Assembly: GCA_041738655.1 (NCBI GenBank)
Contig: JBGSPJ010000401.1
Span: 1 to 54,201 of the forward strand
Source of the DNA: Rhodothermales bacterium
GTDB taxonomy: Bacteria; Bacteroidota; Rhodothermia; Rhodothermales; JAHQVL01
DNA length: 54,201 bases
Direction of reading: 5' to 3'
Shown here in pieces: positions 14,886-37,033 of this stretch; position 1 is the stretch's first letter; each line of letters starts with the position of its first letter. A program made the position numbers and the translations under genes. The notes below the pieces were generated by a model that saw only the letters and a program-made list of their open reading frames with translations, did no database searches and was not told where the DNA came from.

Positions 14886-14898
14886 CCTTTCCTTTTGG

Positions 14899-15684: not shown

Positions 15685-15804
15685 ATACCGTTACGACTGG
15701 AAAATCTGTGACGCGCGGTCGTGTATTACTACCGTCTTGTTCGTACCAGCCCCGCGCCATCGCAGAAAAATAGGTGGCGTGGGCGGATAAAGAGGCGGTG
15801 AAGA

Positions 15805-17043: not shown

Positions 17044-17130
17044 AGCTCGTTTTTATAGCGAATGACACGCAGGGCCGGCATTTGCGCGCTACTCACTCAT
17101 CGCGAAGGCGACAGGGTGACGGAATCCAGG

Positions 17131-19248: not shown

Positions 19249-19449
19249 AGGGGATGTGCGTGGCGCGTAATTTTGTAACGTCAGGGGAGCGATCACGGCG
19301 GCGGGGACCGGCGAGATCAGGGATGCGCGAAACAGGAGGGGGCTGCCGGCATCGGTGATACGATGACGGCAGCCCCATGCAGAATTGTGCCAAACTTGCA
19401 GCGCCTCACCCGGGATGGCGCATCTGTTTCTAGATCGGCGCTAAAAACG

Positions 19450-20463: not shown

Positions 20464-20522
20464 GACCCCCCCTGGGAGTAGACGATGGGCAAATTGGAGA
20501 GTGGCACGCTCGGGGGCGGCCG

Positions 20523-21428: not shown

Positions 21429-21432
21429 TCCA

Positions 21433-22323
21433 TCAGGCGATGGGGCGAAGCTTTTGGTGGCCGAGCCGGGCGGTCACGGCGGACAGGGTCATGCGCACAT
21501 ACGGCAACGACCCATAGATAGGCCACATCATGCCGGCGTACTTCCGAGCAAAATACATCCACTCGCGTGGCGGCAGCCCTTTGGGGCCGGTCACCTGGCG
21601 CCAGCGTTCGCGCAGCGAGAGCCGCGTGTCGAGCCAGCTGCCGTCGATCGGGTTCGTAGCGCATGTGCCGGCGTAGCCCGGCGCGATCCAGACCGACACA
21701 CCCTGCGCGATCGCACGCAGCGCATAGTCGATATCCCCGATGGCGTGCGAAAAACCTCGATCCAGGTTACCCACCTCGCGCGCCACCTCTTCCGGGATGA
21801 GCACGCAGTTGCCGTGCATGATCACACAGGGCAACGGATGATCGGCCGGGGCGACGAGTTCGAATTTGAGTGGATGCCACGTGCTGCTTCGCACCGAGCC
21901 GCCGTACGTGAGGGAGCCACTTTTGGGATCCTGCACCGACCCGACAACGATATTGCGCTCGTAGCCGGCCACGTCGAGCTGGCGCACCGTTTCCATGAAA
22001 CGAGCCAGCGTGCCGGGATACAACTGGGTGTCGTCGTTGAGCCACAGAAAATACTCGGATCCGGCTTCGATAGCGGCGCCAAAAGCCTCGTGCATGCCGC
22101 CGTTCCAGAATAGCGAACCGTCCCCACGGAGCAGGCGCACCTGAGGAAATCGGGTCGCGATGGCCTCGGCGGTGCCGTCGGTGCTTCCGTCGTCCATCAC
22201 GACGGCCTGCAGGGAATACGCGTCGTCCAATTCCTGGGCGAAGTAGTTCTCAAGGCATTTCAGCGTCAGGGGCTTGCGATTGTGACAGGCCAGCACGGCT
22301 GTAATGCGGGTTTTTGCGGACAT
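21433..22323 (-). CDS. Glycosyltransferase family 2
   Basis: Start set at the ATG at 22323 (MSAKTRITAVLACHNRK). VVMDDGSTDGTAEAI, WLNDDTQL. The stop lies 4 nt upstream of the next ORF. Confidence 0.85.
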   Translation of the reverse strand: MSAKTRITAVLACHNRKPLTLKCLENYFAQELDDAYSLQAVVMDDGSTDGTAEAIATRFPQVRLLRGDGSLFWNGGMHEAFGAAIEAGSEYFLWLNDDTQLYPGTLARFMETVRQLDVAGYERNIVVGSVQDPKSGSLTYGGSVRSSTWHPLKFELVAPADHPLPCVIMHGNCVLIPEEVAREVGNLDRGFSHAIGDIDYALRAIAQGVSVWIAPGYAGTCATNPIDGSWLDTRLSLRERWRQVTGPKGLPPREWMYFARKYAGMMWPIYGSLPYVRMTLSAVTARLGHQKLRPIA

Positions 22324-22517
22324 CGGATTGAATGGAGGCTGCGATGCAAAGGCGATGGGCGCATAGGGACGAGGCGGGTTCACCCGGTGCACGCGCGCAG
22401 CGGTCGCCGGCGACACGCCGGAACCGCTGGTTGCCCTTCCAATTCGTCACACCCCTCGGGGTTTCGCTGAAAGCGAGGATAGACGACGTCCTGTGTATCG
22501 GAGCCGGCGGCGTTCGC

Positions 22518-23507
22518 CTAAAGCTTCCGGTTGCCCGTCAGCTTTTTGAAGCTTCGCGTGGCATACAGGGAGAGGTGTTTCATGAAGTATTCCGCCGGGT
22601 TGCGACGGGCGAGGCGAAGGCTCGCCCAATCGAGATCGAGCGGCGTTTCAGACGCATGAGTGCGCTCTCCGCCTGAGATACAACGCACCTCGTTTATGTT
22701 GCCGACGGCCATCGGCAGATCGAGGTCATCCAGGTCGATGATATCGATCTCCTTGAGGGTCTTCTGGTTGATGACCGCGAGAAAGCCACGCGTCTTGTCG
22801 CGCGCGTGGCGCTCGGCGTGTTCGGAGAATCCGATCACGATATGATCCCCCACGACAGAAATGCCTTTTGTATGGCCCGGGTAGGAGAGCCGGGCAAGGA
22901 CTTGCTGGGTCGGTAGATCCACCGCTACGAACTGTCCCGACGACGACGCATTGTAGTAGAGCCGGGTGCCCTCGAGAAAGACATTGTGGCACCCATGGTC
23001 CCACACGCTCAGCGACTGCCTGTAGGTGAAGCCGGCGCGTGGGTCATGGTCCAGAACGGCCAACTCGGTCAACGTCCGGCCTTTGTTGTGCAGCAGGGCG
23101 TAAACCTGATTCCCGCACGGAAAGACGGAGTTGATGTGGTTGTAATCGAAACTCTTCCCCTCGAAGTGATACGAGTGGTACGACGTCCCGTCCAGCGTCT
23201 GGTAGACGATGTTGTTGAAGTCGGTATTCGTAAAATACAGCCCGCCGTTGGTGCAGCTGATCTGGTGGATGGCCCCGGTTTCACCGAGGAAGGGGATGGG
23301 ATTCGCCACTTCCTCGAGCGTTTGACGATCCAGCACGCGGAGCCGTCGGTCGTCTTGTTTGACAAGGACCGCGTCGAGGTCGTTATTTTTTAGGAATCCA
23401 ATACCATAGTGATGGCCGGTGGCAAGGGGGCGGACGTTGGTCACGCGCCAGTTGGCATCAAATGTTATAGCGAACAATTGCGAGTGTGTCGCAACGAGAT
23501 ACGTCAT
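22518..23507 (-). CDS. Hypothetical protein, no signal peptide, possibly beta-propeller-like
   Basis: 329-aa ORF with the codon bias of its neighbours, embedded in the polysaccharide operon. I recognise no catalytic motif. Repeated short beta-strand/turn segments suggest an all-beta fold. Confidence 0.55.
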   Translation of the reverse strand: MTYLVATHSQLFAITFDANWRVTNVRPLATGHHYGIGFLKNNDLDAVLVKQDDRRLRVLDRQTLEEVANPIPFLGETGAIHQISCTNGGLYFTNTDFNNIVYQTLDGTSYHSYHFEGKSFDYNHINSVFPCGNQVYALLHNKGRTLTELAVLDHDPRAGFTYRQSLSVWDHGCHNVFLEGTRLYYNASSSGQFVAVDLPTQQVLARLSYPGHTKGISVVGDHIVIGFSEHAERHARDKTRGFLAVINQKTLKEIDIIDLDDLDLPMAVGNINEVRCISGGERTHASETPLDLDWASLRLARRNPAEYFMKHLSLYATRSFKKLTGNRKL

Positions 23508-23548
23508 AGAACCAGTCTTCTGTGAGCGAAAACGCTCAGCGATCGGAG

Positions 23549-24553
23549 TTACAGGTGAGGATGAACTCGTTTCAGCTGGGGGAGACGCTTGAGTTTATCT
23601 TTAAGCAAACGCAGTTCCAGAAACTGGTACATGAGGCCGTAGGTCATGCGGAGGAGGTCGCCGGCCACCCGTTTCATGGAAAAGGGGATCGTTTGAAGTT
23701 CCTTGTGCAGTTCGTCGAGGTTGTAGCCAAGCGCCGCGAGCCGCGGTGCGCCCAACCAGTTCAAGTACCGCCGGCACCACCATTTACGCAGGGGATTTCG
23801 TAGCGACTGCTTCCACTTGTCGAGTGAGCCGTCGCTGATGGCGCGGTACGCCTTGACGCCTGTCGGATCCCCCATGTCGCCGCCGAGCTGAACGCTCTGA
23901 AAGTCGTCGATCATCGCCGGGTCGAAGGGGATGTTCAGGTACCTACACAGGTCTTTACAAGATAGTTCTGGTTCTGAGATTAAGTCTTCATAACGAATGC
24001 TGAACGCCCGATTCTCATACTTCTCATGGCCGGCAAACAGGCGTTCGAATCCCTCATAGAGATCGATTTTGAAAAAATACAGGTACCAGTGGCCGCGATG
24101 CCAGGTATCGAGCATGGAGGCGATGACGGACAGGGGGTTTCGCCACAGGAACACAAACCGGGCATCCGGGAATAGTTCAAAAATCTCATCGAGGATGAGA
24201 TGATATCGAGGGGTTTTGTCGAGGAAATACCGGGCGCCAGGACGCGCTCGGTCGGTGTAAAGCCGCAGCGCCAGATCTCGAAGGGCACCCGTGAACGCGG
24301 CGCGGCCGCCAGGCATAGCGGTGTAGAAATCCCGGATGGCGTCGACTACCGCGTTCTGGTCGTAGTTCGTATAGATGCCCTCGCGGCGCATCGTGCTGAC
24401 GAGGGGGAGGAGCACCCAGGGCTCGGCGGCGGTATCAATCGATGTGTGCTTGGCGAGGATGCGTTGCAGCAGCGTCGAGCCGCTCCGCGGCAACGAAAGT
24501 AGGAAGATAGGCTGGACGGCCGGGCTTGCGGCGTATCGTTCGGGCTCACTCAC
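23549..24553 (-). CDS. Sulfotransferase family protein (PAPS-dependent)
   Basis: 5'-PSB loop LLSLPRSGSTLLQRIL. Later RYEDLISEPE, typical of sulfotransferases. Start set at the GTG at 24553 (an 8-nt GTGAGTGA overlap with the wzx stop). The ATG at 24634 would overlap wzx by 89 nt. Confidence 0.8.
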   Translation of the reverse strand: MSEPERYAASPAVQPIFLLSLPRSGSTLLQRILAKHTSIDTAAEPWVLLPLVSTMRREGIYTNYDQNAVVDAIRDFYTAMPGGRAAFTGALRDLALRLYTDRARPGARYFLDKTPRYHLILDEIFELFPDARFVFLWRNPLSVIASMLDTWHRGHWYLYFFKIDLYEGFERLFAGHEKYENRAFSIRYEDLISEPELSCKDLCRYLNIPFDPAMIDDFQSVQLGGDMGDPTGVKAYRAISDGSLDKWKQSLRNPLRKWWCRRYLNWLGAPRLAALGYNLDELHKELQTIPFSMKRVAGDLLRMTYGLMYQFLELRLLKDKLKRLPQLKRVHPHL

Positions 24554-25976
24554 GGGGATTTTTGCTGGGATTACGCCGTTTTCCCGGCCAATACAGGGCG
24601 ACGGATACGATCTTAAGGCGATGCCAGACGACAAACGCGGCGATCGTGTTCCAGAGGATGATGGAAAGCGAGGTCGCGACGGCGGCGCCCATCGCGCCGT
24701 AGAGTTTGATCATGCCGGCGTTCATCGCGACATTGATAACGGCCGTAAAACCCAGGATCCGGGCCGAATCCCGCTGGTGACCCGTCATATTGAGTAGGAG
24801 AAGCGCCGGCCCGGTGAACGCGTTGACGATCTGGCCAATGATGAGCACCTTCAACAGCGGAGCCGATGCACCGAAGCCTTCCGAGAAGATGGCCTCCAGA
24901 TAAGCTGATCCGAAGAACAATCCTACCGCCAGCAGGATCGCAACAAAAAATACGGAATTGGCGCCCAAGGTGACGATGCGCTGCAAGTCACCCGTTTTTT
25001 TACGGGCGAAGAGATCGGCCGTCATCGGGTACAAGATGGCGTTTGTGGCGGTCAGGGCGATGATGAGCAGCTGGGCTACGCGGGAGGCCACGCTGAACAC
25101 GGCCACATCATCGGTGCTCGCCAGCATGCCGAGCAGGATCTGATCGGCTTCGAAAATCACGAGGTTGAACCCGGAGGTCCACATCATGTCGCGCGAGGTG
25201 ACGAACCATTCGCGGGACTCGTACACTGGCGTCGCGGCCGCGACTTCAGCGGGCAGCGTTCTGCGGACAAGCACGCCGGCCAGGATCAACGCCAGCAGCG
25301 TGGCCGCGAGGTTGATCATCATCGAAAACTCGGGGGTGATAAACGCCTCGCCACTATCCGACACCGTACGCCCCATCGAGGTCCAGCTATAGATCGTCAC
25401 CGTAAAAAGCGCGATCAACCCCGGACGAACGATGCGTAGGGGGATTTGCGACTGGGCCACGCGTTTGAACCCGTCCAGCACGCCTTCACTCACCTGCAGA
25501 TAGGAGAGCAGGGGCAGGGAGATGAGCGCCAGCAGAAACGCGTACAAAAACCGGTCGTTCCCGTAGTGCGCGGCCAGCGACTCCCAGAATATCCACACGA
25601 CGCCGGCCGCCAGTAGGCCGGCCGCGGTCGAGATCCAGTACGTCGTGCGCCGACAATACATCATGAAGCCGCGGATGCGGGCCCAATCTTTCTGCCCCCG
25701 GTAGGCGGCCAGATATCGAATAGCGGATTTGTTGAAGCCAAGCCGGCCCACGGTGGCCAGCAGCATCAGCCACGACAACGCCAGCGCATATTCGCCGTAA
25801 TACGCCAGCCCGAGGTAATTGGTGAGCACGCCAGCGGATACGAAGGCGACGCCCGCGGCGACGATCCGCGAAACCATGCCGCTGCTTGAGCCACGGATGA
25901 GCTGGGCCACCAGGCCTTTGCCACGCAGCTTCGTAAGAAAATCTCTCGCCATACCCGCGCGAGCCTGGATGTGCAT
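24546..25976 (-). CDS. wzx: Polysaccharide/oligosaccharide flippase (MOP superfamily, Wzx-type)
   Basis: 476 aa. About 12-14 hydrophobic helices, with the layout typical of polysaccharide biosynthesis protein flippases. The start could also be the ATG 24 nt downstream (MARDF). Confidence 0.8.
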   Translation of the reverse strand: MHIQARAGMARDFLTKLRGKGLVAQLIRGSSSGMVSRIVAAGVAFVSAGVLTNYLGLAYYGEYALALSWLMLLATVGRLGFNKSAIRYLAAYRGQKDWARIRGFMMYCRRTTYWISTAAGLLAAGVVWIFWESLAAHYGNDRFLYAFLLALISLPLLSYLQVSEGVLDGFKRVAQSQIPLRIVRPGLIALFTVTIYSWTSMGRTVSDSGEAFITPEFSMMINLAATLLALILAGVLVRRTLPAEVAAATPVYESREWFVTSRDMMWTSGFNLVIFEADQILLGMLASTDDVAVFSVASRVAQLLIIALTATNAILYPMTADLFARKKTGDLQRIVTLGANSVFFVAILLAVGLFFGSAYLEAIFSEGFGASAPLLKVLIIGQIVNAFTGPALLLLNMTGHQRDSARILGFTAVINVAMNAGMIKLYGAMGAAVATSLSIILWNTIAAFVVWHRLKIVSVALYWPGKRRNPSKNPRE

Positions 25977-26003
25977 AAATTACTCGTTCGAGGAAAGAGG
26001 TCC

Positions 26004-26882
26004 TCAGGAGGATGAAATGATGTCGAGCTCCTTGTATAGCTCGTGGTATCCCCAGCGTTCGATGATGTCGCCCACCTTCGCGGTCACGGCCGGCATCAGC
26101 ATCTCGGGGATCTCTTCCTGCCATGAGGCGACCTGGCCCTTGCGGAAGGTGTGCCGGCCGGGGCCGAACAACTCTTCGACGACCTTGTCGATCGGTGGAT
26201 TCTTGATATCCAGACTATCGCACAACCGACGCAGGGTGTTCCGCTGGATCTCGTCCGAACCGCCGCCGCGGTTACCTACGAGATCCTCGAAGCGAATCTT
26301 GACCGTGTCGTCCGACGACAGCCATCCCTCCAGGGCAAGGCAGCGCGATCGCAGCGGTTCGAGGTAGGCGTTTCGGAAACGCCGTCCGTTGAGCACGGCA
26401 TCAAACCGCTCGTCCATGTTGAGCGCAGCAAATTCCGCGTGGATGACATGCTCCTTGCGTTCGGCGACATAGTGAACAAAAGAAACCAGAACGGCGCGAG
26501 GATCCCGAAAGACGACGATCGGCCGGATATCGTGCGCCACCACGGCGTCCAGCAGCGCCGTTGAGTATCCGACGTGCGCCGTGAAAAAAGAATGGGTCGG
26601 CGCTTTGCGCAACATCCGGTGCACGGCGCCGCGAGAGATCTCCACCGGCGTGTCGATGCCCACTAGATAGCCCTGGCGTACGGGCAGCCAGGCTAGCCGG
26701 CGCCATTTGCTGGCCAGGCCGGGGTTCAACACCTGCGCGGAGCCGACATGGTCGCGCTCGGAGTACCCCATCAATTTGAGGCATTTCGCGGTAAGGTGAG
26801 TACCGGATTTGGGCAGCGAGTTTATAAACGCTTGTTTCATTGATTCAGGTCGCAAGCGGCGCGTTAACGCCAGGAGGGGCAT
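26004..26882 (-). CDS. Sulfotransferase domain protein (PAPS-dependent)
   Basis: 5'-PSB loop FINSLPKSGTHLTAKCL. RFEDLVGNRGG. No signal peptide or TM helix. Its ATG shares one base with the wzy stop (TGATG). Confidence 0.8.
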   Translation of the reverse strand: MPLLALTRRLRPESMKQAFINSLPKSGTHLTAKCLKLMGYSERDHVGSAQVLNPGLASKWRRLAWLPVRQGYLVGIDTPVEISRGAVHRMLRKAPTHSFFTAHVGYSTALLDAVVAHDIRPIVVFRDPRAVLVSFVHYVAERKEHVIHAEFAALNMDERFDAVLNGRRFRNAYLEPLRSRCLALEGWLSSDDTVKIRFEDLVGNRGGGSDEIQRNTLRRLCDSLDIKNPPIDKVVEELFGPGRHTFRKGQVASWQEEIPEMLMPAVTAKVGDIIERWGYHELYKELDIISSS

Positions 26883-28324
26883 CAGATTCGGTTCTGGGCA
26901 TGATAGGCCCTGTAATACAACCGCGCAGCCTCTTTCTCTTCCGCGTGGTTCTGCGCAATGGCCAGGCCAAGGCTCACAAATAACCAGGTAAAGGGCTCGA
27001 AATCGTACGCCACGTAATAGGCGGAGGCACCCAGCAACACCACAAGGCTCAGCAGGGAGGTCATTTTGTAAAAGGGGTCTAGCGTTTCAACATAGGTCCG
27101 CCGAAGACGCACATACGTTTGCAGGGCAAACGACAGGTATAACAGAAGCCCGATGACGCCAATCTGGTAATGCAGCTGGATGTATTGATTATGGAGCATC
27201 GCTGTTACAATCGATCCGGTCGGAGACCGCAACTGAAAGTAATTACCGAGTCCTTTCCCTTCGAGAAAATGCGCTCGGGATTGCTCGAGGGCGTCCATCC
27301 AGAGATGAAAGCGCCAGCTGGCTGTCTGGTCTTCGGAAGGCGCCGTGAGCGCTGTCATGCGCTCCTGGATGTAGCCAAACAGATCGAGATCGTCATACAC
27401 GAGCCCGAGCAGGAGCGCGGCCGTGATGGCGAGGAAAGTCAATTTCATGATCGTTCCCATCCGGAAGTAGCCCATCAAGAACAGAACGAACAACGAAACG
27501 ATGGCCGCCAGCCAGACGGAGCGGTGGCTGGCAATGATCGTCAGCGCCATCGATATCCCGATCAGCATCGCCAGCAGCGTGTTGCTCCGCCACCAGAAGC
27601 CAAATTGCTTCATCAGGTAAATCGCCAGTGTTCCCCACAGCAGTGCCAGCGAACCGTGCTGGTACAGCCACTTCGCGTACGCATGGAACGCGAAGTGGTG
27701 GACATACGCGCCGCGAAACAGGCCGATGGCGATGAAGGAAAGCGTCATGCCGACCAGGACCTGGAAGACACGCCACTGATCATGCCGGGTGCGCGCGAAA
27801 ATGATCACGTAGGGCACGATGAGGATTTCCCGGAAGTACGTCCGGAACTCGCCCAGCGGGCTGACCACGCCAAAAAGCATCATCGAGCGGGCGAGTTCAA
27901 AAACCATCCATCCCATGAATATGGTCCACCACAGGTTCTCCCGGAGCAATACGTGGCGCGCGCGAAGGTCGCTGGAAAACACTTTGACGGCCATCGCGGC
28001 CAACATGGCGAACAGGATCGGGTCGCCATACAACATGTCCACGCCGCCGCCGGCGCTGAGCGAGGGCTCGACGTAGTTCGAGTAGTCCCAGATGACGACC
28101 TCGACCATGATCTGCGTGGCTAGCCCCCACATCAGCACCATCACGAGGTGGTACTTGTAGGCGACCAGTACCAGACCAAACGCCAGGCAGAGGCCGTTGA
28201 GGAGCAAAACAACCTTCTCCCCTCCAAACACCAGGAACGCAAAAAACGACAGCGCGACGAGCACCATCGCGCTGATCTCTACAGGCGAACGCCGGCTTGA
28301 CGCTTTTTCAAGCAGGCTGGACAT
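26882..28324 (-). CDS. wzy: O-antigen ligase/polymerase-family membrane protein (Wzy-type repeat-unit polymerase)
   Basis: 480 aa, polytopic (about 11-12 TM helices). One larger periplasmic loop with an Arg/His-containing segment, as in Wzy_C-type proteins. Sits in a context with wzx, wza and wzc. Confidence 0.75.
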   Translation of the reverse strand: MSSLLEKASSRRSPVEISAMVLVALSFFAFLVFGGEKVVLLLNGLCLAFGLVLVAYKYHLVMVLMWGLATQIMVEVVIWDYSNYVEPSLSAGGGVDMLYGDPILFAMLAAMAVKVFSSDLRARHVLLRENLWWTIFMGWMVFELARSMMLFGVVSPLGEFRTYFREILIVPYVIIFARTRHDQWRVFQVLVGMTLSFIAIGLFRGAYVHHFAFHAYAKWLYQHGSLALLWGTLAIYLMKQFGFWWRSNTLLAMLIGISMALTIIASHRSVWLAAIVSLFVLFLMGYFRMGTIMKLTFLAITAALLLGLVYDDLDLFGYIQERMTALTAPSEDQTASWRFHLWMDALEQSRAHFLEGKGLGNYFQLRSPTGSIVTAMLHNQYIQLHYQIGVIGLLLYLSFALQTYVRLRRTYVETLDPFYKMTSLLSLVVLLGASAYYVAYDFEPFTWLFVSLGLAIAQNHAEEKEAARLYYRAYHAQNRI

Positions 28325-28451
28325 AACCGTTGCGATCCATCGGATACTACGTTAAAAAGGAATGACGACGCGGCGTGTGGACTCGAAAAATCATAAAAAT
28401 GGGCACGCGAGCGTCATCAAGTACAGTGCCACACGGCCTGTTTTGTTTCGA

Positions 28452-31229
28452 CTATATCGGCAATGTTTGGATGATTCTGGCATCCGCGTTGGATGAATTA
28501 TGCGCCGTCATCACGATCCGCATCCCGGGGGGGATGTCGATCAGGCCGGCATGCACGAGTCGACCCTCCGCATTGGAGCGGAAGGCCCGGATAGGCTCGC
28601 CCGTCAGCCGGCTCAGACGGACGTCGGCGAGCGGGAGGGTGAGCATGTCATCGGGCAACGTGCTCATTCGGGCGCGTCCCATGGCGGAGCCGGCCATTAC
28701 GAGAGCGTCGCCGCCGCGGGGCGGGACGCCGGGAGGATCCACTAGATTGCGGAGGGAGAGGGTCACCACCGGGTCTTCCGGTCGGGTATCAAACTGCATT
28801 TCCAGGAAATTCCAGTAAAACGGCCCCGACGCCGGCGCCAGATCGGGGGAATGGTAATCCGCATGGTAAAACGCGGTCACTTCAATCGACCGGCCGTCAT
28901 AGTCGGTCATCAGCCGGCCAAAGTTCTCCTTGGGCTCGCGGCCCGAGTTCCGCCCGATCGGGCCAAAGCTGCACTCGCACACGTTGTGGTGCATGTTGCG
29001 CAGGATCGTGCCGTTGTGTACATCCCCGTACACGGTGACCACGCCGCCCCGGGCGCCCATCAGTTCGAGCACCCGGTCGGCTCCCGCCGTCACCCAGCCG
29101 GCGTAGTCCGCCGTCACCCGGTCGTCCTGATTAAAGACGAGGCCGGTTTCGGGGTCTTTTTCGGTGCCGGACCAGATCGTGTGCAGCCCGTTGATCCCGG
29201 TGACGCAGATGAGCGGCGAGGCGTCTGTGCGCAACTGCTCCTGCAGCCAGGCGAACTGCTCTTCGCCGAGCAACGTCCGTGTCGGGTCGCTGCGGTCGTA
29301 GAGTTGGCGTTTGTGGCCCCAGCCATTGTCGTCCCAGATCCGCGTGTCCTGGGAAGTGCGCCAGAGGCGGGCGTCCATGATGAGCAGCGAAAAGTCGCTG
29401 GCCGGCGAACGCCACCGCCGCCATAACTTTGGGTTTTCTTCGGCGTTCGGGTTTTCGTCGCCGCTCATCAGGTGGCGGACGATCTGGAAATTGCGCCGCA
29501 TGTACGCCGAATCCTGCCCGAGATCGTCGTGCACCCGTACGAGGCGCTGCTCGGGGCCCTTCACGTCGTCCATCCCGTAGTCGTGGTCGCCCGGGTTCAC
29601 CACATTCCAGTGCCGCATCATCTGCCACCGCGTGGTAGGGCCGGCGATGGTCGTGGTGATGACTTTATAGGCGTCGTCCGTGCTGGGCGGGGGAAACATG
29701 AGTTCGAGATACCAGACGTCGTCCTCCCAGAGCATCACCTGGAAGCCGTAGTCTTCCAGATACAGATAGGCCTCGGGGGTCGGCTGGTCGTGCACGAACC
29801 AGGCCTGGTATTTTTCGGCGCGCGGTAGGTTCGGGCCGTTGCCGTGGATGGAGTGGCAGCTGAGTCCGCATAGCCGGTAAGGCGCCGCCAACTGAGGCAG
29901 CCGGCCCACGTACAGTCCGCTCGAGGGCACGGTCCCGATAAAACCGGTGCCTGCGCCCACGCTGGCTGTTCCGATCCGTGGATCGGTGGTGAGGTCGACG
30001 TCGTTCCGCCAGACGGTGAAGTACTGCGTCCGGGTCGACGGATCGAAGGGGAGGACCACATCGATCACCGCGGTGCTACGCCGGAAGGCGTTGGTAACGA
30101 TGGGGGCCTCGCCGGCCGTCGGGAGGCTCTGCCAGCCGCCCTCGGGCGATTCCGTATCCGCGATACGGATGGCGGCGTGCCCGCCGTCATTCCTGAACAG
30201 GGCGATGAAGCGGCAATGCCAGATGCCGTCGCTTTCCTGAAGGGAGTCGAGCAGGGGATAACAGACCTGCAATTCGTTCAGAGGCGTTTCGAGCGCTTCG
30301 TTCTCTCGGGGTGCGAGCGTCACATTGCCGATCGAAACATCCAGGCCGCCGCGTGCGACAATCCCGAAGAACCCTTCGGTGTAGGCTTCGCGGTTGACAT
30401 TGGGAAGAGAAATCGACTGCCATGTGTCGTCATAAAACAGCATGGCTTCGATCGAGGCATACCGGGGGTCGGTGCCGTCGACGAAGAGTAGGATCGATCC
30501 GGTCTCGCCGGCGCGTGGTGCGCGGGTCGTAATCTCGGCGCGCTTGTCGACCGGTTTTAGAGTGTCTGACGTATGGCTGTAGATCCCGAATCGCCCGTCG
30601 TCCGTCCAGACCGCCATCCAGGCGGCGGAGTCGCCGGCGCTGCCGGGTAACAGCCGGTCGAGGAACGTGTCGCCCTCCTGGCTGCCGGTCCAGCTTTCGC
30701 CGAGGCATTCCGAGCCGAAGGCGATCCCGAAAAGCGCATACCCGGGGCGGTCTTGCTGGTTCGGCGTGCCGCTGGCATGGGCCGGCAGGGCGTGGACGGT
30801 AAAGTCGATCTGGATACTGTAGTTGCCACGTAGCCACCAGTCGCGCCGCCAGACCATGCCGTAGGGCAGAGAGATGTCGTACGTGACGGGCATCTGGCCG
30901 TCGCCGCGGGTGCGCCAGTGCCAGGGGAACGAGTCGGTCGGCCGCTTGTCGCCGGCATTTTCGAGGCGCCGGCGCATGCGCTGGTTTTCGATACGCCAGT
31001 ATCCCGGATTGACAGACTCCCACCCATTGCCCAGCCCGAGCGCGTCGTCGCGGGAGAAATCGTCGATGACAATCGTGCGCCCGCCGGCGGCCGTGAGGGG
31101 CGCCGGCGGGGCGGACGGATCGGTAGGGGTACACGACGAGAGCAGCAGGCTGCCGCCCAGGCCCGTCGCTCCCAGAGTACCCATTTTCTGGAGGAATTGC
31201 CTGCGGGAAACAGACTCGGGTGCGTCCAT
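28452..31229 (-). CDS. Tat-signal putative lipoprotein with a C-terminal PhoD-like metallophosphatase domain and an uncharacterised N-terminal half
   Basis: 925 aa. Twin-arginine signal SRRQFLQKMGTLGATGLGGSLLLSSC. PhoD-like motifs LLIMDARLWRT, LLGEEQFAWLQEQLRTDASPLICVTG and VVTVYGDVHNGT. The N-terminal ~400 aa have no motif I can name. Confidence 0.6.
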   Translation of the reverse strand: MDAPESVSRRQFLQKMGTLGATGLGGSLLLSSCTPTDPSAPPAPLTAAGGRTIVIDDFSRDDALGLGNGWESVNPGYWRIENQRMRRRLENAGDKRPTDSFPWHWRTRGDGQMPVTYDISLPYGMVWRRDWWLRGNYSIQIDFTVHALPAHASGTPNQQDRPGYALFGIAFGSECLGESWTGSQEGDTFLDRLLPGSAGDSAAWMAVWTDDGRFGIYSHTSDTLKPVDKRAEITTRAPRAGETGSILLFVDGTDPRYASIEAMLFYDDTWQSISLPNVNREAYTEGFFGIVARGGLDVSIGNVTLAPRENEALETPLNELQVCYPLLDSLQESDGIWHCRFIALFRNDGGHAAIRIADTESPEGGWQSLPTAGEAPIVTNAFRRSTAVIDVVLPFDPSTRTQYFTVWRNDVDLTTDPRIGTASVGAGTGFIGTVPSSGLYVGRLPQLAAPYRLCGLSCHSIHGNGPNLPRAEKYQAWFVHDQPTPEAYLYLEDYGFQVMLWEDDVWYLELMFPPPSTDDAYKVITTTIAGPTTRWQMMRHWNVVNPGDHDYGMDDVKGPEQRLVRVHDDLGQDSAYMRRNFQIVRHLMSGDENPNAEENPKLWRRWRSPASDFSLLIMDARLWRTSQDTRIWDDNGWGHKRQLYDRSDPTRTLLGEEQFAWLQEQLRTDASPLICVTGINGLHTIWSGTEKDPETGLVFNQDDRVTADYAGWVTAGADRVLELMGARGGVVTVYGDVHNGTILRNMHHNVCECSFGPIGRNSGREPKENFGRLMTDYDGRSIEVTAFYHADYHSPDLAPASGPFYWNFLEMQFDTRPEDPVVTLSLRNLVDPPGVPPRGGDALVMAGSAMGRARMSTLPDDMLTLPLADVRLSRLTGEPIRAFRSNAEGRLVHAGLIDIPPGMRIVMTAHNSSNADARIIQTLPI

Positions 31230-31242
31230 CGGGGCGGAGCTA

Positions 31243-32316
31243 TCAGGCGACGTGTCGTTCGCGAAGGGTGAGTTCGTCCCGTGCGGCGTCGAGGTCGGAG
31301 TCTACCATCTCGCGCACCATGTCTTCGAGCGTGCAGGTGGCTTCCCAGCCCAGTTTCTGCTTGGCCTTGGTCGGGTCGCCCAGCAACAGGTCCACTTCTG
31401 TCGGGCGGTAGTAGCGGGGGTCGACTTCAACGACCACTTCGCCGGTATCAGTCCGGTACCCTTTTTCGGCTTCCTCGGCGCCCTTCCAGGCCACTTCGAT
31501 GCCGACGGCGCCGAAGGCCGCGTTGCAGAAGTCGCGCACCGTCGTCGTCCGGCCGGTGGCGAGCACGTAGTCGTCCGGCTGGTCCTGCTGGAGCATCATC
31601 CACATACCCTCGACATAGTCGCGGGCGTGGCCCCAGTCGCGCTTGGCGTCCAGGTTACCCAGATACAGTTCCTTCTGGAGCCCGAGTTTGATGCGGGCGA
31701 CAGCGCGGGTGATCTTGCGCGTCACGAAGGTCTCGCCGCGGAGCGGGCTTTCGTGGTTAAACAGAATGCCGTTGCAGGCAAACATGTTGTAGGCCTCCCG
31801 GTAGTTCACCGTGATCCAGTAGCCATAGAGCTTGGCGGCGGCGTACGGGCTGCGCGGGTAAAACGGCGTCGTTTCGCTCTGGGGCACGGCCTGTACCTTG
31901 CCGTAGAGCTCGCTGGTCGAGGCCTGGTAGAAACGGGTCGTGTTCTGGAGTCCGAGGATACGGATGGCTTCCAATAGCCGGAGCGTACCGATGCCGTCGA
32001 CGTTGGCCGTGTACTCCGGCGTCTCGAAGCTGACCTGGACGTGGCTCTGGGCGGCGAGGTTGTAGATCTCGGTGGGCTGGACTTCCTGCACGATACGGAT
32101 CAGGTTCGTCGAGTCCGTTAGATCGCCGTAATGGAGGAAAAAGCGGGCATTGTCGATGTGCGGGTCGACATAGAGGTGATCTATGCGCTGCGTGTTAAAG
32201 GAGCTCGAGCGGCGTTTAATGCCATGCACCTCGTAGCCTTTCTTGAGCAGCGATTCGGCCAGATAGGCGCCGTCCTGACCGGTGATGCCGGTGATCAAAG
32301 CACATTTCTTTTTCAT
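31243..32316 (-). CDS. gmd: GDP-mannose 4,6-dehydratase
   Basis: 357 aa. [60 protein letters not shown]. Near-canonical Gmd. Confidence 0.95.
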
Positions 32317-32373
32317 GACTCGAAAATTATGGATAAAGGGTTTTAAATCATTACAGGCGAGGCCGCGGCCTGC

Positions 32374-33342
32374 TCAAGCGGGCATATGATGGTCCTGAAA
32401 CCACGCATAGGATTGTTCGATGCCCTTTCGGAGCGAGGTGCCGGCCGTCCAGCCGAGCTTCGTCATCCGCGAGACATCCATCAATTTGCGCGGGGTGCCG
32501 TCCGGCTTGGAGGCGTCGTATTCGATCGGGCTGGTGCTGCCGACGACGTCGCGCACGAGCTCGGCCAGTTCGCGGATCGAGAGGTCGTATCCGGCGCCCA
32601 CGTTCAGGATGCCGTCCGGCGCCGTCCCATAAATAACATCGGCCGGTTGCTCCATCGCAAAAACGGTGGCGTCCGCCATGTCGTCCACGTACAAGAATTC
32701 GCGTAGCGGCTTACCCGATCCCCAGATGGGCACGGGGGCGTCAGGAAGGCCGTTGGTGCCCTTCGCCTCGTGGAATTTACGGATGAGCGCGGGGAGGACG
32801 TGACTGGATTTGAGGTCAAAATTATCGTTCGGGCCGTACAGGTTGGTCGGCATCATGCTAAAAAAGTCCGACCCATGCTGCTTTCGGTACGCCTGACAGA
32901 GCTTGATGCCCGCGATCTTCGCGATCGCATACCATTCGTTCGTCGGCTCGAGTGGACCTGTGAGCAGGTACTCTTCCTTTAGCGGCTGGGGCGCCAGCTT
33001 GGGATAGATGCAGGAGCTTCCGAGGAAGATCAGCCGCTTGACGCCGGCGCCAAACGCCGCCCGGATAATGTTGGTCTCTATCACCAGGTTGTCGCTGATG
33101 AAGTCGGCCGGGTAGGCGTTATTCGCGAGAATCCCTCCGACTTTCGCCGCCGCCAGGATCACCACGTTTGGGTGTTCCTTTGCAAAAAACGAGGCCACAT
33201 CCGACTGGGAGAGAAGGTCCAGCTCCTGCCGGGTGCGGGTCACGATGTGGTCGTACCCGCCGGCCGTAAGGCGGCGGACGATGGCGGAGCCTACGAGCCC
33301 CCGGTGGCCGGCCACAAAGATCCGGTCGTGTTTGGAAATCAT
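32374..33342 (-). CDS. fcl: GDP-L-fucose synthase (GDP-4-keto-6-deoxymannose 3,5-epimerase/4-reductase)
   Basis: 322 aa. IFVAGHRGLVGSAI, LGSSCIYPK, YAIAKIAG, PTNLYGPNDNF. Canonical Fcl/WcaG. Confidence 0.93.
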   Translation of the reverse strand: MISKHDRIFVAGHRGLVGSAIVRRLTAGGYDHIVTRTRQELDLLSQSDVASFFAKEHPNVVILAAAKVGGILANNAYPADFISDNLVIETNIIRAAFGAGVKRLIFLGSSCIYPKLAPQPLKEEYLLTGPLEPTNEWYAIAKIAGIKLCQAYRKQHGSDFFSMMPTNLYGPNDNFDLKSSHVLPALIRKFHEAKGTNGLPDAPVPIWGSGKPLREFLYVDDMADATVFAMEQPADVIYGTAPDGILNVGAGYDLSIRELAELVRDVVGSTSPIEYDASKPDGTPRKLMDVSRMTKLGWTAGTSLRKGIEQSYAWFQDHHMPA

Positions 33343-33348
33343 GAGGGT

Positions 33349-33882
33349 TTAGTTACGGCTGAGCCGCTCGACGAGGAGAAGCGTGGAAAGAATCGGGCTG
33401 ATGATGGTGAAGACGTCGCGCCAGTTCATTCGCCTTCGCTGGTCGACTTCGATCGTCAACACATCACCATCCTGGAGCAGGGGCGTTTCAGACGTGTCGT
33501 TGAGCATCTCATCCATCGTGGACTCGAAGATCTGCATGCGCGCGCCACCGCGGTTGCGGAACAGGCGCACGGTCGGCGTCTGATTCCAATCCGGGTTCGT
33601 CGCAAACACAGGGCCTCCGGAAAGCGCCAGCAGGAAGCCCAGGTTCTCGCCCTCTTCGATGATGTAGACACCTGGCGACTGGAGTTTGCCAAACGCGTAC
33701 ACCTGGATTGTCGCAGAGCCTGGCTCCACGTGGTAGAAGTAGGATTTGATATTGCTTTGCGTGTCTTCGACGCGGCCGAAGTTCTGCTGGGCGAGGGCCG
33801 GCTTCAGGGAGCAAAAACCGACAAGCATGCACAACGCGAATGCTACCGCATTCGCGCTGGCACGACGCGTACGTCTGTGCAT
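33349..33882 (-). CDS. wza: Polysaccharide export outer-membrane protein (short Wza-like, Poly_export/SLBB)
   Basis: Start set at the ATG at 33882 (MHRRTRRASANAVAFALCMLVGFCSLKPALAQ). Motifs VQVYAFGKLQSPGVYIIEEG and LQDGDVLTIEV. Sits directly downstream of wzc. Confidence 0.7.
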   Translation of the reverse strand: MHRRTRRASANAVAFALCMLVGFCSLKPALAQQNFGRVEDTQSNIKSYFYHVEPGSATIQVYAFGKLQSPGVYIIEEGENLGFLLALSGGPVFATNPDWNQTPTVRLFRNRGGARMQIFESTMDEMLNDTSETPLLQDGDVLTIEVDQRRRMNWRDVFTIISPILSTLLLVERLSRN

Positions 33883-33946
33883 GATAATTCTCTCGGGGAT
33901 GTGTGTGAACGACTGATCGTTGGGAGTTGCGCCCGAGATGCAGCGG

Positions 33947-36310
33947 CTAGCTGGCCACGTAACTATTCGAACCGTAACTATATCCGTACGTGTTCCGATA
34001 GCCGTACATGCTGCTCGGGTCGAATCGATTGAGCACTGTACCGATAACATTGGCGCCCACGCTCCGCAGTTCTTCGATGGACTGCTTGAGGGAGTCCATG
34101 TCTGTGCCGTCGGCCGAAGCAACGACGATGACGGCGTCGCACTGGCGCGAGAGGAGCACGGGGTCGACGGCGCCCAGGACGGGCGGGGTGTCGAAGATGA
34201 CGATGTCGAACTCGCTGCGGAAGCGTTCGACGAGATCGATCATCTTACGCGACCCGAGCAGTTCCGCCGGCTGGGAGACCGGGATGCCCGTGATCACATA
34301 GAGATTCTCGAACCCGGTGAAGAAGCGTTCGGAATCCCAGCGGCTTTCATCCTCCGAAAGCAGTTCGAGCAGGCTGGGGCCTTCGGGCAGGCCGAGCTTG
34401 TCATGCAGCGACGGACGACGGAGGTCCGCATCCACCACAAGCGTCCGCCGGCCGGCCTGCGCGGTTGTAAACGCGAGGTTCAGTGCCGTGGTGCTCTTTC
34501 CGGCGCCGGCCTTGGGGCTCGTGATCATCAGGTTCTGGATGCCACGGTCGTCGCGGCTGAACTGGAGCTTGATATAGAGCCGGCGATAGGCCTCAGCGAT
34601 CGGTGATATAGGGGCAATAAGGGCTACCAGGCCGGTGCTGATCTCGCGGCCCTCGAAGTCGATCTTGGTGCGTTTGCCAAACTCCTTCTTGATGAGCTGC
34701 CGCATGTCCGGCACGACGCCGATCATGTTGATGTCGCTCACCGTGAGGTCGTCCGGCGTGTAGACGCGGGTGTCCAGCTTCCGGCGGGCCACGGCGGCGC
34801 CCACACCCAGCATGAGGCCCAACATGAGGCCCATGGCAAGGTTGACGGCCTTGCGGGGTTTCAGCGGTGCTTCCGGCGCGACGGCGCTGCGGATGACTTT
34901 GGCGAAGCCGCGTTCGGATTGTTCGGCGATCCGGATCTGGCCGAGTTTCTGGGAAAGGATCGTGTACAGTTCCTCGGCGGCGCCCTGCTGGCGTTCCAAC
35001 TGGGTGAGCTCGATCGCTACGTCCGGGATGTTCTTGAGCTTGGCGTCATACTCGCGCAGGCGCTGCTCGAGACCGCGCACCCTCGCCTGCTGGCCGCTAA
35101 TGGCGATTCGCTCATCGGCGATCTTGCGCTTGAGATCGGCGAGGTACGTCATGCTCAGGCCCTCCTTCTTAGGGTCGATGCCGCCTGTGTTGACGAGGTC
35201 GTCGACATATTCTTCAGACAGGCTGCGGACCCGGGAGCGGAGCTGCGCGATCTGGGCCTGCATGTCCAACACGGTGGGGTTGCCCTCCGGGTTGTCACGC
35301 AACTGCGGGTTTTTCTGGAAGATTACATCCACCTGCATTTCCAGATCGGCGATGCGCTCCTGGGCCTGCTCCAATTCGCGCTCGACCGTCGAGGCGACAC
35401 GGTTTGTGAGGCGGGGCTGCATGTCCATCAACTCCTGTTCGAGCGTCAGTAGCTGGGATTCGCCCATGCTCTGCTCGATGCGCGCGTCCTCCAGCATGGC
35501 CTGCATGGTTGCAATCTGGGCGACAGTGTACTTGGCCTGTTCGTCCAGCGCCGTGGCGCCTTCGCGGCTCATATAGTTGGCCAGACGGGTCTCCAACTCG
35601 TCGAGTTCGATCTTCTTCTCCGCGAACTGCTGTTCGAGGAAGATCCGCTGGGCGGTCAGACGTTCGCGGCTCATGTCCTCGGTGAGGTGGACATATTCTT
35701 CCGCGTACATGTTGGCGATGAGCGCGGCCTCTTCGGCGGAGCTGCTGCTGGCGCTGATGATAAGCGCGTCTGCACTGCTCTCGCTGTCGGCCGGCTTGAT
35801 GCCCAGGTATTCCTCCTGGAGTAGCTGGGCGAGGTGGCTGATCGAAGTGCTCTCCTCGAGGATGGCCAGCGGCGCGCCCGAGACCGGGAGCGTGCGCATC
35901 TCGACGAGCCGGTCCGCCGTGCGCCGGGCAATCTCGGTGGATTGCTGAAGCAATAGTTGCTGCGTTTGGAGCTTGGAGTCTGCTCTCATGCCGCCCTTCA
36001 GGAAGTTCGGCGCCAGCTTATCTTCGTCCGTCGTCGCCTTTGTGTCCACGAGCAGCAGGGTGCTCGCCTGATAGACCGGCACCATGGTGAAGGTATAGAC
36101 CGTCACGGCCGTGAACACCAGCGACGCGATGCCGATGATGTACCACTTACCCAGGCGTAAAATTTCGAGCGCCTCGTGCAGAGCCGTTTTCGAATCCGGT
36201 TCCTTTCGGCCGTACATGGGGCCCATGAAACGAGGATCGGGGGGGCCCATTTGCTGCGCGGGAAGATTCTGGTAGTATCCGCGACTTACGGGGTAAGAGT
36301 TGTTGTCCAT
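33947..36310 (-). CDS. wzc: Polysaccharide co-polymerase / tyrosine autokinase (Wzc, GumC-like)
   Basis: Start set at the ATG at 36310 (MDNNSYPV). Wzz-type N-terminus with a TM helix and a long coiled-coil. Walker A SPKAGAGKST, A' VVDADLRRP, B IVIFDTPP. C-terminal Tyr cluster YGYRNTYGYSYGSNSY. Confidence 0.9.
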   Translation of the reverse strand: MDNNSYPVSRGYYQNLPAQQMGPPDPRFMGPMYGRKEPDSKTALHEALEILRLGKWYIIGIASLVFTAVTVYTFTMVPVYQASTLLLVDTKATTDEDKLAPNFLKGGMRADSKLQTQQLLLQQSTEIARRTADRLVEMRTLPVSGAPLAILEESTSISHLAQLLQEEYLGIKPADSESSADALIISASSSSAEEAALIANMYAEEYVHLTEDMSRERLTAQRIFLEQQFAEKKIELDELETRLANYMSREGATALDEQAKYTVAQIATMQAMLEDARIEQSMGESQLLTLEQELMDMQPRLTNRVASTVERELEQAQERIADLEMQVDVIFQKNPQLRDNPEGNPTVLDMQAQIAQLRSRVRSLSEEYVDDLVNTGGIDPKKEGLSMTYLADLKRKIADERIAISGQQARVRGLEQRLREYDAKLKNIPDVAIELTQLERQQGAAEELYTILSQKLGQIRIAEQSERGFAKVIRSAVAPEAPLKPRKAVNLAMGLMLGLMLGVGAAVARRKLDTRVYTPDDLTVSDINMIGVVPDMRQLIKKEFGKRTKIDFEGREISTGLVALIAPISPIAEAYRRLYIKLQFSRDDRGIQNLMITSPKAGAGKSTTALNLAFTTAQAGRRTLVVDADLRRPSLHDKLGLPEGPSLLELLSEDESRWDSERFFTGFENLYVITGIPVSQPAELLGSRKMIDLVERFRSEFDIVIFDTPPVLGAVDPVLLSRQCDAVIVVASADGTDMDSLKQSIEELRSVGANVIGTVLNRFDPSSMYGYRNTYGYSYGSNSYVAS

Positions 36311-37033
36311 AGTTCTTTGTTTAATCAATGCGAACGGACGGCGGTGTTCGGCCCGTGTGCGGCACCGGTTACCCGTATCTGTCGACGCCAACTACTCGTC
36401 GCACGAGTGTCGTGTCACAGAAACGGCGGCGAACTCTAGTTTAACGACAGTAAGTTCGCTCACCCGGAGTGGGTCACACACACAGGCGGACATCGCTCGG
36501 ACGTCCAGCTGCTGCACTAGGTACTGGGAGAATTCGCGCAAGAACTGAGAACGGGGGGATGGGTCGCCCGAAGCCAGCAGGGCCAGCATCGGACCAGGTT
36601 GTCGGGTATGACTTAACCCTTATTCATCAAGTTCCTGCGTGGTGGGGCAACTCCTTGAAAAAAGTCTATTTACACAGACAAAATATCGACCCAAATCTCG
36701 ATTTGCTTTAATGGGTGATCTGGCACGATTATTAATTGGTGAAATGAGTCCCGAATAAGGACTCGATTTCGTCCGCTCTTTCCGCGCCCCCCGCGAGCTG
36801 CGACGAATTGGTGATCGAACGATGAACATTTGGTGACATCCGTGTACGTCGTACGCCTTATGGCTTGGTCCCGGCCATCGGCGTGCTTCCCCCCGGCCGA
36901 CGTACGGTACCCTCGGTGTAGCCCAGTGGAATCGTTCAGGAGAAAGGCAACATACTCTGGCCCGCGGCCTACGTGCCGGCTCGTTCTACGTGCCGTACGC
37001 CGCTTCATCACAGGGGTGCAACCCCCTTACGCT

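Follow-up and report, generated by a model that had tools for sequence, protein, structure and literature searches.

The gene studied here lies in a 54,201-nt stretch of DNA (contig JBGSPJ010000401.1 of the Rhodothermales bacterium assembly GCA_041738655.1), which as a whole is called the window. It encodes a 925-aa protein with a lectin-like and a PhoD-like domain, and we refer to it and its homologues as the lectin-PhoD family. An earlier reading that was made from the letters of the DNA (the sequence-only reading) had placed a 925-aa open reading frame (ORF) between gmd and wzy, 13 nt from the former and 127 nt from the latter. Both its coordinates and its gaps proved correct, and the strand, which it had not given, is the minus strand. 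Thus, gmd lies upstream and the Wzy_C gene downstream of the lectin-PhoD gene, and the three genes are co-directional and tightly spaced. No terminator-like site was found in either of the two flanking gaps, and promoter-like matches in the scanned region around the gene did not occur more frequently than in shuffled sequence. Since there are hundreds of full-length homologues, the ORF does not represent a chance ORF and is confirmed as a real gene. Near-identical DNA to window positions 28200-31400 is present in runs labelled biofilm metagenome and hot springs metagenome, which belong to one study. The biofilm metagenome runs are possibly the source of the window DNA, and no RNA run is listed among them. 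The lectin-PhoD gene is located within a cluster of co-directional genes for an exopolysaccharide (EPS), which has the following features (APS, adenosine 5'-phosphosulfate; PAPS, 3'-phosphoadenosine 5'-phosphosulfate):

8736..36391, minus strand: whole co-directional EPS locus, from a WbaP-type initiating transferase to Wzc
13158..14966, minus strand: bifunctional ATP sulfurylase / APS kinase (PAPS synthase), NF004040, 900 bits at a cut-off of 669
17131-19296, minus strand: 721-aa protein with a right-handed beta-helix and a dockerin-type module, conserved in metagenome locus L115
22518-23507, minus strand: DUF4915/TIGR03032-like gene, below both cut-offs
23549..24634, minus strand: sulfotransferase (Sulfotransfer_3, Pfam)
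24546..25976, minus strand: Wzx-type flippase (Polysacc_synt, Pfam)
26004..26882, minus strand: sulfotransferase (Sulfotransfer_1, Pfam)
26882..28324, minus strand: Wzy-type polymerase (Wzy_C, PF04932, E 5e-14)
28452..31229, minus strand: lectin-PhoD family gene (P0001), 925-aa ORF with ATG start
31243..32316, minus strand: gmd, GDP-mannose 4,6-dehydratase, TIGR01472, 623 bits at a cut-off of 415
32374..33342, minus strand: fcl-like GDP-L-fucose synthase, NF047922, 487 bits (E 2e-146), just below the cut-off of 500
33349-34122, minus strand: small secreted-protein ORF of 257 codons between wzc and fcl, no Pfam or NCBIfam match
33947..36391, minus strand: Wzc-type co-polymerase / tyrosine kinase, profile match

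The gene order of the locus starts with the WbaP-type transferase, an epimerase/dehydratase, a UDP-glucose dehydrogenase, the PAPS synthase, a WecG/TagA-type glycosyltransferase and a glycosyltransferase (GT) of family GT4. It continues with the beta-helix/dockerin protein, a GT1, two GT2, the DUF4915-like gene, the first sulfotransferase, Wzx, the second sulfotransferase, Wzy, the lectin-PhoD gene, gmd, the fcl-like gene, the small secreted protein and Wzc. Judged by this gene content, the product is probably a sulfated polymer that contains fucose and uronic acid. Sulfation is the only ester chemistry that the locus encodes, and no phospho-substituent transferase is recognisable among its annotated genes. 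Trimming of a phosphodiester-linked substituent, which was one of the roles suggested by the sequence-only reading, is therefore conceivable but lacks a recognisable partner enzyme in a locus that encodes only sulfation.

The protein was modelled with AlphaFold2 from an alignment of 47 sequences (mean predicted local distance difference test score, pLDDT, of 85; predicted template modelling score of 0.87). The model presents four domains, namely a legume-lectin-like domain, an FN3-like domain, a domain of the PhoD/purple acid phosphatase (PAP) fold and a C-terminal beta domain, which follow a signal region:

31131..31229, minus strand: signal region, residues 1-33, with the twin-arginine motif SRRQFLQK (8-15) and the lipobox L30-S31-S32-C33
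30300..31088, minus strand: legume-lectin / concanavalin A (ConA)-like beta-sandwich, residues 48-310, pLDDT mostly >90, no Pfam match
29910..30284, minus strand: FN3-like domain of the PhoD/PAP type, residues 316-440, within the structural alignment
28725..29897, minus strand: PhoD-like metallophosphatase domain, residues 445-835, recognised by PF09423, Foldseek and VIA-align
28455..28718, minus strand: C-terminal beta-sandwich, residues 838-925, with strands at 838-921 and pLDDT ~90

Residues 1-49, which contain the twin-arginine motif and the lipobox, are disordered in the model. Within the twin-arginine translocation (Tat) motif the residues R9, R10 and F12 are conserved in at least 90% of the 47 homologues, which fits the export of a cofactor-loaded enzyme; the Pfam family TAT_signal gave no match in the protein at E <= 0.01. 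Lipoboxes have the consensus [LVI][ASTVI][GAS]C and mark the end of the h-region of the signal; by motif reading, L30-S31-S32-C33 appears to conform to it. Among the family sequences the lipobox cysteine is confined, as judged by eye, to the EPS-linked clade described below. A Tat signal with a lipobox had been claimed before, and both motifs are indeed present, with evidence at the motif level. Likewise, every string that had been quoted was located in the protein: SRRQFLQK at 8-15, LLLSSC at 28-33, LIMDARLWRT at 616-625, LLGEEQFAWLQEQL at 653-666, ASPLICVTG at 670-678 and VYGDVHNGT at 733-741.

The sequence-only reading had described about 400 aa behind the signal as free of recognisable motifs. 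This holds as far as Pfam and NCBIfam are concerned, where there is no match, but the model resolves the region into a lectin-like domain and, behind it, an FN3-like domain as is usual before PhoD/PAP catalytic domains. Compared with legume lectins by VIA-align, residues 48-310 reach Z ~17 at a root-mean-square deviation (rmsd) of 3.0-3.9 with 189-201 residues aligned. The best VIA-align match of the model is the Bacillus subtilis PhoD structure PDB 2YEQ (Z 21.3, rmsd 3.6, 412 residues aligned, 15% identity), which is also ranked first by Foldseek (2yeq_A, E 3e-13). Purple acid phosphatases of plants, e.g. that of kidney bean (4DSY), are nearly tied with it (Z 20.5-20.9, 361-364 residues aligned, 11-12% identity). 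The model ranges aligned by VIA-align are 316-849 for 2YEQ and 315-850 for the plant enzymes. On the sequence level, the Pfam PhoD profile PF09423 matches residues 597-742 (E 2.6e-8, 33.8 bits at a cut-off of 27). This match spans profile positions 139-268 of 343 and does not cover the whole catalytic domain; a scan of the whole genome returned the same match with 36 bits as the sole PF09423 match. PhoD is the only Pfam family found in the protein at E <= 0.01, and the sulfatase profile PF00884 did not match. Neither phmmer nor a profile of the 47 family sequences found 2YEQ or any other relevant match among the PDB sequences. Overall, the PhoD-type domain that had been proposed is borne out both by the profile above its cut-off and by the fold, and the small C-terminal beta domain is seen in the model as well. 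The protein is best described as a distinct subfamily within the sister groups PhoD and PAP, whose architecture and context are both new.

For B. subtilis PhoD, an Fe3+/2Ca2+ phosphodiesterase, the available text of PMC4223295 states that the Fe3+ is ligated by a tyrosine and that substitution of the metal-site residues C180, D207, D265, D266, N271, N272 and D436 abolishes or drastically reduces activity. Candidate ligands in the 925-aa protein are C458, D504, Y507, D548/H549/D550, D554/D555, D736 and H738. This mapping was inferred from motif order, spacing and position after predicted strands and not from a superposition, since only the block LD-x-R / LLG..Q..WL could be aligned by sequence methods. 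The motifs mapped in this way are C458-H459 (L-S-C-H, corresponding to A-S-C-Q in PhoD), D504 and Y507, G547-D548-H549-D550 followed by D554-D555, D619 and R621, N680 and H683, D708, and D736-x-H738. Thus, window protein and PhoD probably share a colinear series of Cys, Asp, Tyr, an Asp cluster and Asp-x-His, besides the LD-x-R and LLG..Q..WL block and the succession of an FN3-like domain and a metallophosphatase sandwich; export by the Tat pathway, which is predicted for the window protein, would be a further common trait. In contrast to PhoD, the window protein contains an additional lectin-like domain of 260 residues, a C-terminal beta domain and a putative lipid anchor. By motif reading, the counterpart of PhoD D265, the first Asp of WDDHE, appears to be the invariant G547 in the family, whereas the invariant His683 of the family seems to have no counterpart in PhoD. 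The iron site of plant and mammalian PAPs, which includes a tyrosine and a histidine, is of the same type as the candidate site of the window protein. Motif V of PAPs reads G-H-x-H, whereas the window protein has G-D-x-H, as in PhoD.

Altogether, 17 sites were tracked through the family, and all of them are intact in the window protein. They are identical in 73 of 76 full-length genome copies, while the remaining three carry C458G, in one case together with D619N. Among 69 full-length metagenome copies 56 have all 17 sites; five of the others carry N680S, six carry C458G along with minor changes and two are degenerate. The candidate metal ligands, whose conservation had been named as a check on the PhoD assignment, are therefore present and highly conserved as far as motif order allows them to be matched.

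The family is large and widely distributed. A word-indexed search, in which 8000 candidates were scored, yielded 566 matches at E <= 0.001, and the 120 listed matches have lengths of 763-937 aa and share 48-79% identity with the query over 82-100% of its length. An exhaustive search of representatives at 50% identity gave 148 clusters at E <= 0.001, which are mostly fragments, suggesting that this ~900-aa family, with about 50% identity across the groups named below, is closely knit and stands apart from other sequences. Its presence was confirmed at 280 sites in genomes, of which 80 were surveyed for their context together with 80 metagenome loci. The 80 genome loci belong to Rhodothermales, Acidobacteriota (mostly Bryobacterales), Planctomycetota, Verrucomicrobiota, Cyclobacteriaceae-type Bacteroidota, Halalkalibaculum and one Robiginitomaculum. 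Agaribacillus aureus BMA12, Splendidivirga corallicola BMA10 and Halalkalibaculum sp. DA3122 are cultured strains that possess an orthologue. In their source records the homologues are named "alkaline phosphatase D family protein" or "hypothetical protein", and a full-text literature search found no paper on the family. Within the order, 10 of 285 genomes contain the gene, six of which belong to the family of the window genome, one to a second and three to a third family. The copies in these two other families occur in fucosidase/SusD settings and have the Tat motif but not the lipobox cysteine. Further ORFs with PhoD hits in related genomes (~885 aa and ~935-959 aa) were found by tblastn not to belong to the lectin-PhoD family. 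They are located in G003:C42, G004:C93, G007:C11, G026, G032 (L103-L111), G004:C125, G006:C195 and G007:C35, and some of these large ORFs with weak PhoD matches also occur near sulfatases.

Outside the window's own lineage, the lectin-PhoD gene is not located in EPS loci, as far as the surveyed loci show. The EPS genes of the window (gmd, fcl, wzy, wzx, wzc and the sulfotransferases) recur in only one of the 80 genome loci (L001, Rhodothermales), which apparently is the same contig as one of the five genomes with conserved gene order described below, and EPS synteny was seen in two of the 80 metagenome loci. As a rule for the whole family, membership in an EPS locus thus does not hold; elsewhere, the gene is found beside sulfatases, glycoside hydrolases (GH) of family GH29 and SusC/SusD. 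The S1 sulfatase is the commonest neighbour, with 49 ORFs in 40 of 80 loci within 8 kb. Five host genomes hold 54, 77 and, in three cases, at least 124 sulfatase matches each, and the occurrence of any sulfatase within 8 kb was consequently dropped as evidence. In 22 of 78 genome loci and in 11 of 73 metagenome loci, a gene directly next to the family gene encodes a sulfatase. After dereplication at 80% identity, sulfatases make up 13.5% of adjacent ORFs versus 4.3% of the non-adjacent flank (Fisher p 0.0055), and at 70% identity 16% versus 5.2% (p 0.021). The adjacent sulfatases represent several subfamilies, at least two of which recur across phyla in different gene orders. One of them (72-81% identical) is kept across Bryobacterales and has a 44-48% identical relative near the family gene in a Planctomycetota locus. 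Members of another one (46-62% identical) lie directly beside the family gene and in the same direction in two Acidobacteriota loci and one Planctomycetales locus, whose gene orders differ.

Genes for GH29 or GH29-like enzymes are adjacent to and co-directional with the family gene in four distinct loci of about 158. These are L120 (E 2.9e-86), G097/L207, which equals L007 (E 1e-15), L177 (weak match) and G211/L208, where the family gene is flanked by a GH29 gene upstream (E 4.7e-97) and another GH29-like gene downstream. These genomes contain only 5-17 GH29 genes each, so that chance adjacency amounts to ~0.3% per locus by our own estimate. Furthermore, SusC/SusD loci hold the family gene in Bacteroidota and Rhodothermales. 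In L003 (954-10700) and L039, genes for an extracytoplasmic function (ECF) sigma factor, a FecR-type anti-sigma factor, SusC and SusD precede the family gene, and no other enzyme is encoded in the locus. Other neighbours encode ASPIC/FG-GAP proteins, a heparinase II/III-like protein and sulfatase, mutarotases of the rhamnose/fucose type, enolase-superfamily dehydratases, a periplasmic arylsulfotransferase (5 loci), YdjC, GH16, polysaccharide deacetylase and pairs of DUF1549/1553 with DUF1501. A DUF5060/Collagen_bind_2 protein, which we take to be of the GH140 type, is also found. At L062:10825-12663 (minus strand) in Planctomycetota, the next gene downstream of the family gene encodes a 612-aa PhoD, which is matched more completely by Pfam (E 4.7e-30) and includes a PhoD_N domain; a sulfatase and a sialate-type acetylesterase come after it.

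This context raises the question of which bond the enzyme might cleave. It could be that the protein is a formylglycine-independent metallo-sulfatase, i.e. an editor of sulfate esters on sulfated fucans that is catabolic in most of its hosts and trims EPS sulfation in the window. Such an activity would agree with S1 sulfatases and the periplasmic arylsulfotransferase as neighbours, with the presence or absence of the gene together with the sulfotransferases of the locus and with an EPS locus in which no transferase for phospho-substituents can be recognised. Conversely, the neighbouring sulfatases could already cover all desulfation, and none of the computed results separates S-O from P-O chemistry. 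Moreover, every characterised member of the metallophosphatase/PAP/PhoD fold cleaves P-O bonds to our knowledge. We regard this explanation as unlikely.

In the close relatives of the window genome, the order gmd-gene-wzy is stably maintained. It is kept in five further genomes from two genera (G001 and G002 of the same genus; G003, G005 and G007 of a second genus), with 90-60% identity, as well as in the metagenome loci L114 and L115. In the G007 locus (L113, G007:C32:225000-244900) the lectin-PhoD gene aligns in 3-4 pieces, wzy in 5 and the small secreted ORF in 2. The breaks are stops or frameshifts (about 8650-13100 and 15300-15850 of L113), whereas nine flanking genes give single alignments, and there may be local gene decay or an assembly error. 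In G004, which represents a third genus and is 99% complete, the order is wzc-orf-fcl-gmd-[366 nt]-wzy-wzx-GT2. This locus lacks the lectin-PhoD gene, both sulfotransferases and the DUF4915-like gene, which are missing at three separate sites. No homologue of either sulfotransferase was detected anywhere in the G004 genome at E <= 1e-10, and the PAPS synthase is still present. Since the lectin-PhoD gene is missing from the orthologous locus of G004, it is an accessory rather than a core gene. The sequence-only reading had considered it an integral operon member; this applies to the close relatives but neither to G004 nor to the family at large, where EPS synteny is rare.

The G004 locus also bears on two further explanations. 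One of them, likewise suggested before, is that the protein acts as a phosphodiesterase or pyrophosphatase that frees the polymer from undecaprenyl pyrophosphate (Und-PP) or clears dead-end Und-PP intermediates. The gene adjoins wzy, the mature protein would be lipid-anchored at the membrane, and PhoD enzymes are described as phosphodiesterases in the accessible text of PMC4223295. However, G004 has an orthologous Wzx/Wzy locus without the gene, a sub-clade retains the gene although its site is dead (see below) and more than 95% of the family loci, mostly catabolic ones, are not EPS loci, where a secreted form without lipobox would meet no Und-PP. Release from an Und-PP anchor therefore fits poorly and is highly improbable. 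It might also be that the protein is an ordinary phosphate-scavenging PhoD and a mere passenger in the EPS locus. It contains the sole PF09423 match of its genome, its Tat signal resembles that of B. subtilis PhoD, and in two related loci a phosphate-selective porin lies alongside. Against this, the position with the 13-nt gap after gmd is conserved across lineages down to 49% identity, the gene co-varies with the sulfotransferases, and the protein carries an extra lectin domain. Additionally, no Pho-regulon genes were found among the annotated neighbours except for the cases of Porin_O_P, PhoD and Metallophos_2, and the family context is glycan metabolism instead of the Pho regulon that is associated with B. 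subtilis PhoD. We consider a scavenging function very unlikely.

The relationship among the EPS-linked copies was deduced from a quick maximum likelihood tree (IQ-TREE, 47 sequences, unrooted), with branch support from the Shimodaira-Hasegawa-like approximate likelihood ratio test (SH-aLRT). The 14 lipobox-bearing sequences form one split with an SH-aLRT of 100, of which nine are active and five degenerate. The nine active sequences all keep the 17 sites despite a mutual identity of only about 55-60%. In contrast, all members of the degenerate sub-clade (P0042, P0052, P0054, P0080, P0097, L114 and L115) bear substitutions at 12 of the 17 sites: C458S, H459R, D504G, Y507Q, E509A, D548G, H549A/S, D550E, D554E, D708N, D736G and H738G/S/N. 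That these residues disappear as a block indicates that they form a single functional unit, and this is the strongest argument for the ligand mapping. Within the lipobox split, the degenerate sequences make up an inner group on a long stem branch of 0.63. Its five representatives are full-length and 69-76% mutually identical, and conservation in their PhoD-like domain (75%) matches that of the remaining protein, which suggests that the gene persisted under constraint after the loss of the site. The copies in L114 and L115 are 92% identical to P0042 and are arranged as gmd-gene*-wzy-sulfotransferase-GT2-beta-helix-GT4-WecG-PAPS synthase, where the asterisk marks the degenerate gene; a match to the DUF4915-like gene was not found in either locus. 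Degenerate copies were seen in an EPS setting in both cases with known context, and they are absent from the 76 genome copies and the 67 other metagenome copies. Pseudophosphatases of the STYX type, in which the fold is kept and conserved after loss of catalytic residues, belong to a different fold family but may provide an analogy to this sub-clade.

The existence of a conserved clade with a dead site makes a binding or scaffold role a serious rival. Accordingly phrased, the protein would mainly be a non-catalytic periplasmic or surface lectin or scaffold that guides the sulfated polymer in polymerisation and export, and its metal site would be a leftover or of secondary importance. The full-length persistence of copies that lost 12 of 17 sites, their occurrence, where the context is known, in the same gmd-gene-wzy position and in the EPS setting only, and the lectin-like similarity of the N-terminal domain speak for such a role. 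On the other hand, the retention of all 17 sites in the nine active sequences across 55-60% identity argues for selection on catalysis in this lineage, and the long stem of the degenerate clade suggests a change of function instead of continuity. A non-catalytic binding function, which the sequence-only reading had listed among its possibilities, is thus supported for the degenerate sub-clade but is not the leading explanation for the window copy because all 17 candidate sites are intact there. For the window protein we consider it unlikely.

Taken together, we tentatively favour a reading to which we give somewhat less than an even chance, namely that the window protein is a catalytically competent, glycan-directed metallo-esterase that stems from sulfated-fucan catabolism and was recruited to process or bind the locus's own polymer. 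This reading builds on the domain architecture, the active-site conservation, the genomic contexts and the way in which the gene and the sulfotransferases occur or are missing together, and from these we infer that the exported polymer of the locus is the substrate and what kind of ester might be cut. In the suggested mechanism, the Tat pathway would export the four-domain protein, and a lipid would anchor its mature form. The PhoD-type Fe/Ca metallophosphatase fold would constitute the catalytic part of the esterase, whereas the lectin-like domain might target the enzyme to fucose-rich sulfated glycans. The family would ordinarily act outside the cytoplasm in the breakdown of such glycans, together with S1 sulfatases, GH29 fucosidases and SusC/SusD importers. 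In one Rhodothermales lineage, a copy might then have been recruited, gained the lipobox and become fixed between gmd/fcl and wzy. There, the protein could bind the exported polymer or its repeat unit, and the metal site could hydrolyse an anionic ester on the polymer after export and in this way remove or edit it. By the fold, a phosphate ester would be the default, and by the context a sulfate ester would be the alternative.

Several observations weigh against the recruited metallo-esterase. A sub-clade has kept the gene without an active site, so that catalysis may not be required for the role under selection in the EPS setting. The equivalence of the ligands follows from motif order, spacing and joint loss, and we know of no metallophosphatase-fold enzyme that cleaves sulfate esters. 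The NCBIfam PhoD equivalog NF058638 scores 15.6 bits at a cut-off of 1000, and an hhalign comparison of the family with four canonical PhoDs from related genomes aligned 53 columns (probability 87), which comprise only the LD-x-R / LLG..Q..WL block. The composition of the EPS is read from gene content, and the co-variation with the sulfotransferases comes from about three lineage states and not from many independent events. With regard to the family context, the host genomes are so rich in sulfatases that 40 of 80 loci with one within 8 kb is about chance level, and the ~3-fold enrichment at adjacent positions loses significance upon dereplication at 60% identity (p 0.16), where the counts become too low. 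In many loci the neighbours are unrelated (IF3, an amidohydrolase with 3-dehydroquinate (DHQ) synthase, PutA, helicases), and phosphate-related ones occur as well, i.e. Porin_O_P (L181, L192), PhoD (L062) and Metallophos_2 (L117).

A bolder version, which we regard as rather unlikely, would be that the family as a whole is a formylglycine-independent metallo-esterase of sulfated-fucan metabolism, either a sulfatase of the PhoD/PAP fold or an enzyme for an unrecognised ester linkage. If this were true, degraders in five phyla would use the enzyme, one Rhodothermales lineage would have borrowed it for its own EPS, and it would then have evolved into a pseudoenzyme lectin. The breakdown of fucoidan-type sulfated glycans needs very large enzyme sets in which steps are still unassigned, and the lectin-PhoD family, as a secreted metalloenzyme beside sulfatases and fucosidases in Acidobacteriota, Planctomycetota, Verrucomicrobiota, Bacteroidota and Rhodothermales, would be a concrete candidate for such a step. 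In addition, nature provides three states at one locus position, an active enzyme, a dead enzyme and no gene, which would allow a direct comparison for the role of the protein.

The EPS locus can be compared with the xss locus for synechan of Synechocystis PCC 6803, which, according to the available text of PMC8205485, combines Wzx and Wzy with a co-polymerase and with two sulfotransferases that belong to different subfamilies. The window locus presents the same set for a sulfated EPS as predicted from its genes. In contrast to the xss locus, it also has its own PAPS synthase and gmd/fcl as well as the PhoD-like gene, whereas PhoD is not mentioned in the available text of the synechan paper (PMC8205485), and its host belongs to the Rhodothermales and not to the cyanobacteria. 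In that text, the authors state that sulfotransferases were not found in other bacterial EPS clusters (PMC8205485), which, as far as this statement extends, makes the locus at window positions 8736-36391 of interest in its own right. The window provides an example, from outside the cyanobacteria, of a complete sulfated-EPS locus that brings its own PAPS synthase.

A further architecture that resembles the window protein was noted in the ESM Atlas, where a 690-aa fusion of a 3-keto-disaccharide hydrolase and PhoD has 130 members, mainly from Planctomycetota. Here, a ConA-like sandwich is likewise placed before PhoD (feature score 0.80, to be taken as a lead only), suggesting that such fusions arose more than once. 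In contrast to the window protein, this architecture is shorter and its N-terminal domain is recognised by Pfam (PF06439).

Two other genes of the EPS locus deserve mention. The small secreted-protein ORF of 257 codons overlaps wzc by 175 nt and is kept there in every orthologous locus examined. Its start is more likely to be at Met81, which is followed by a signal-like hydrophobic stretch. The 721-aa beta-helix/dockerin protein is a candidate for a polymer-modifying or polymer-cleaving enzyme.

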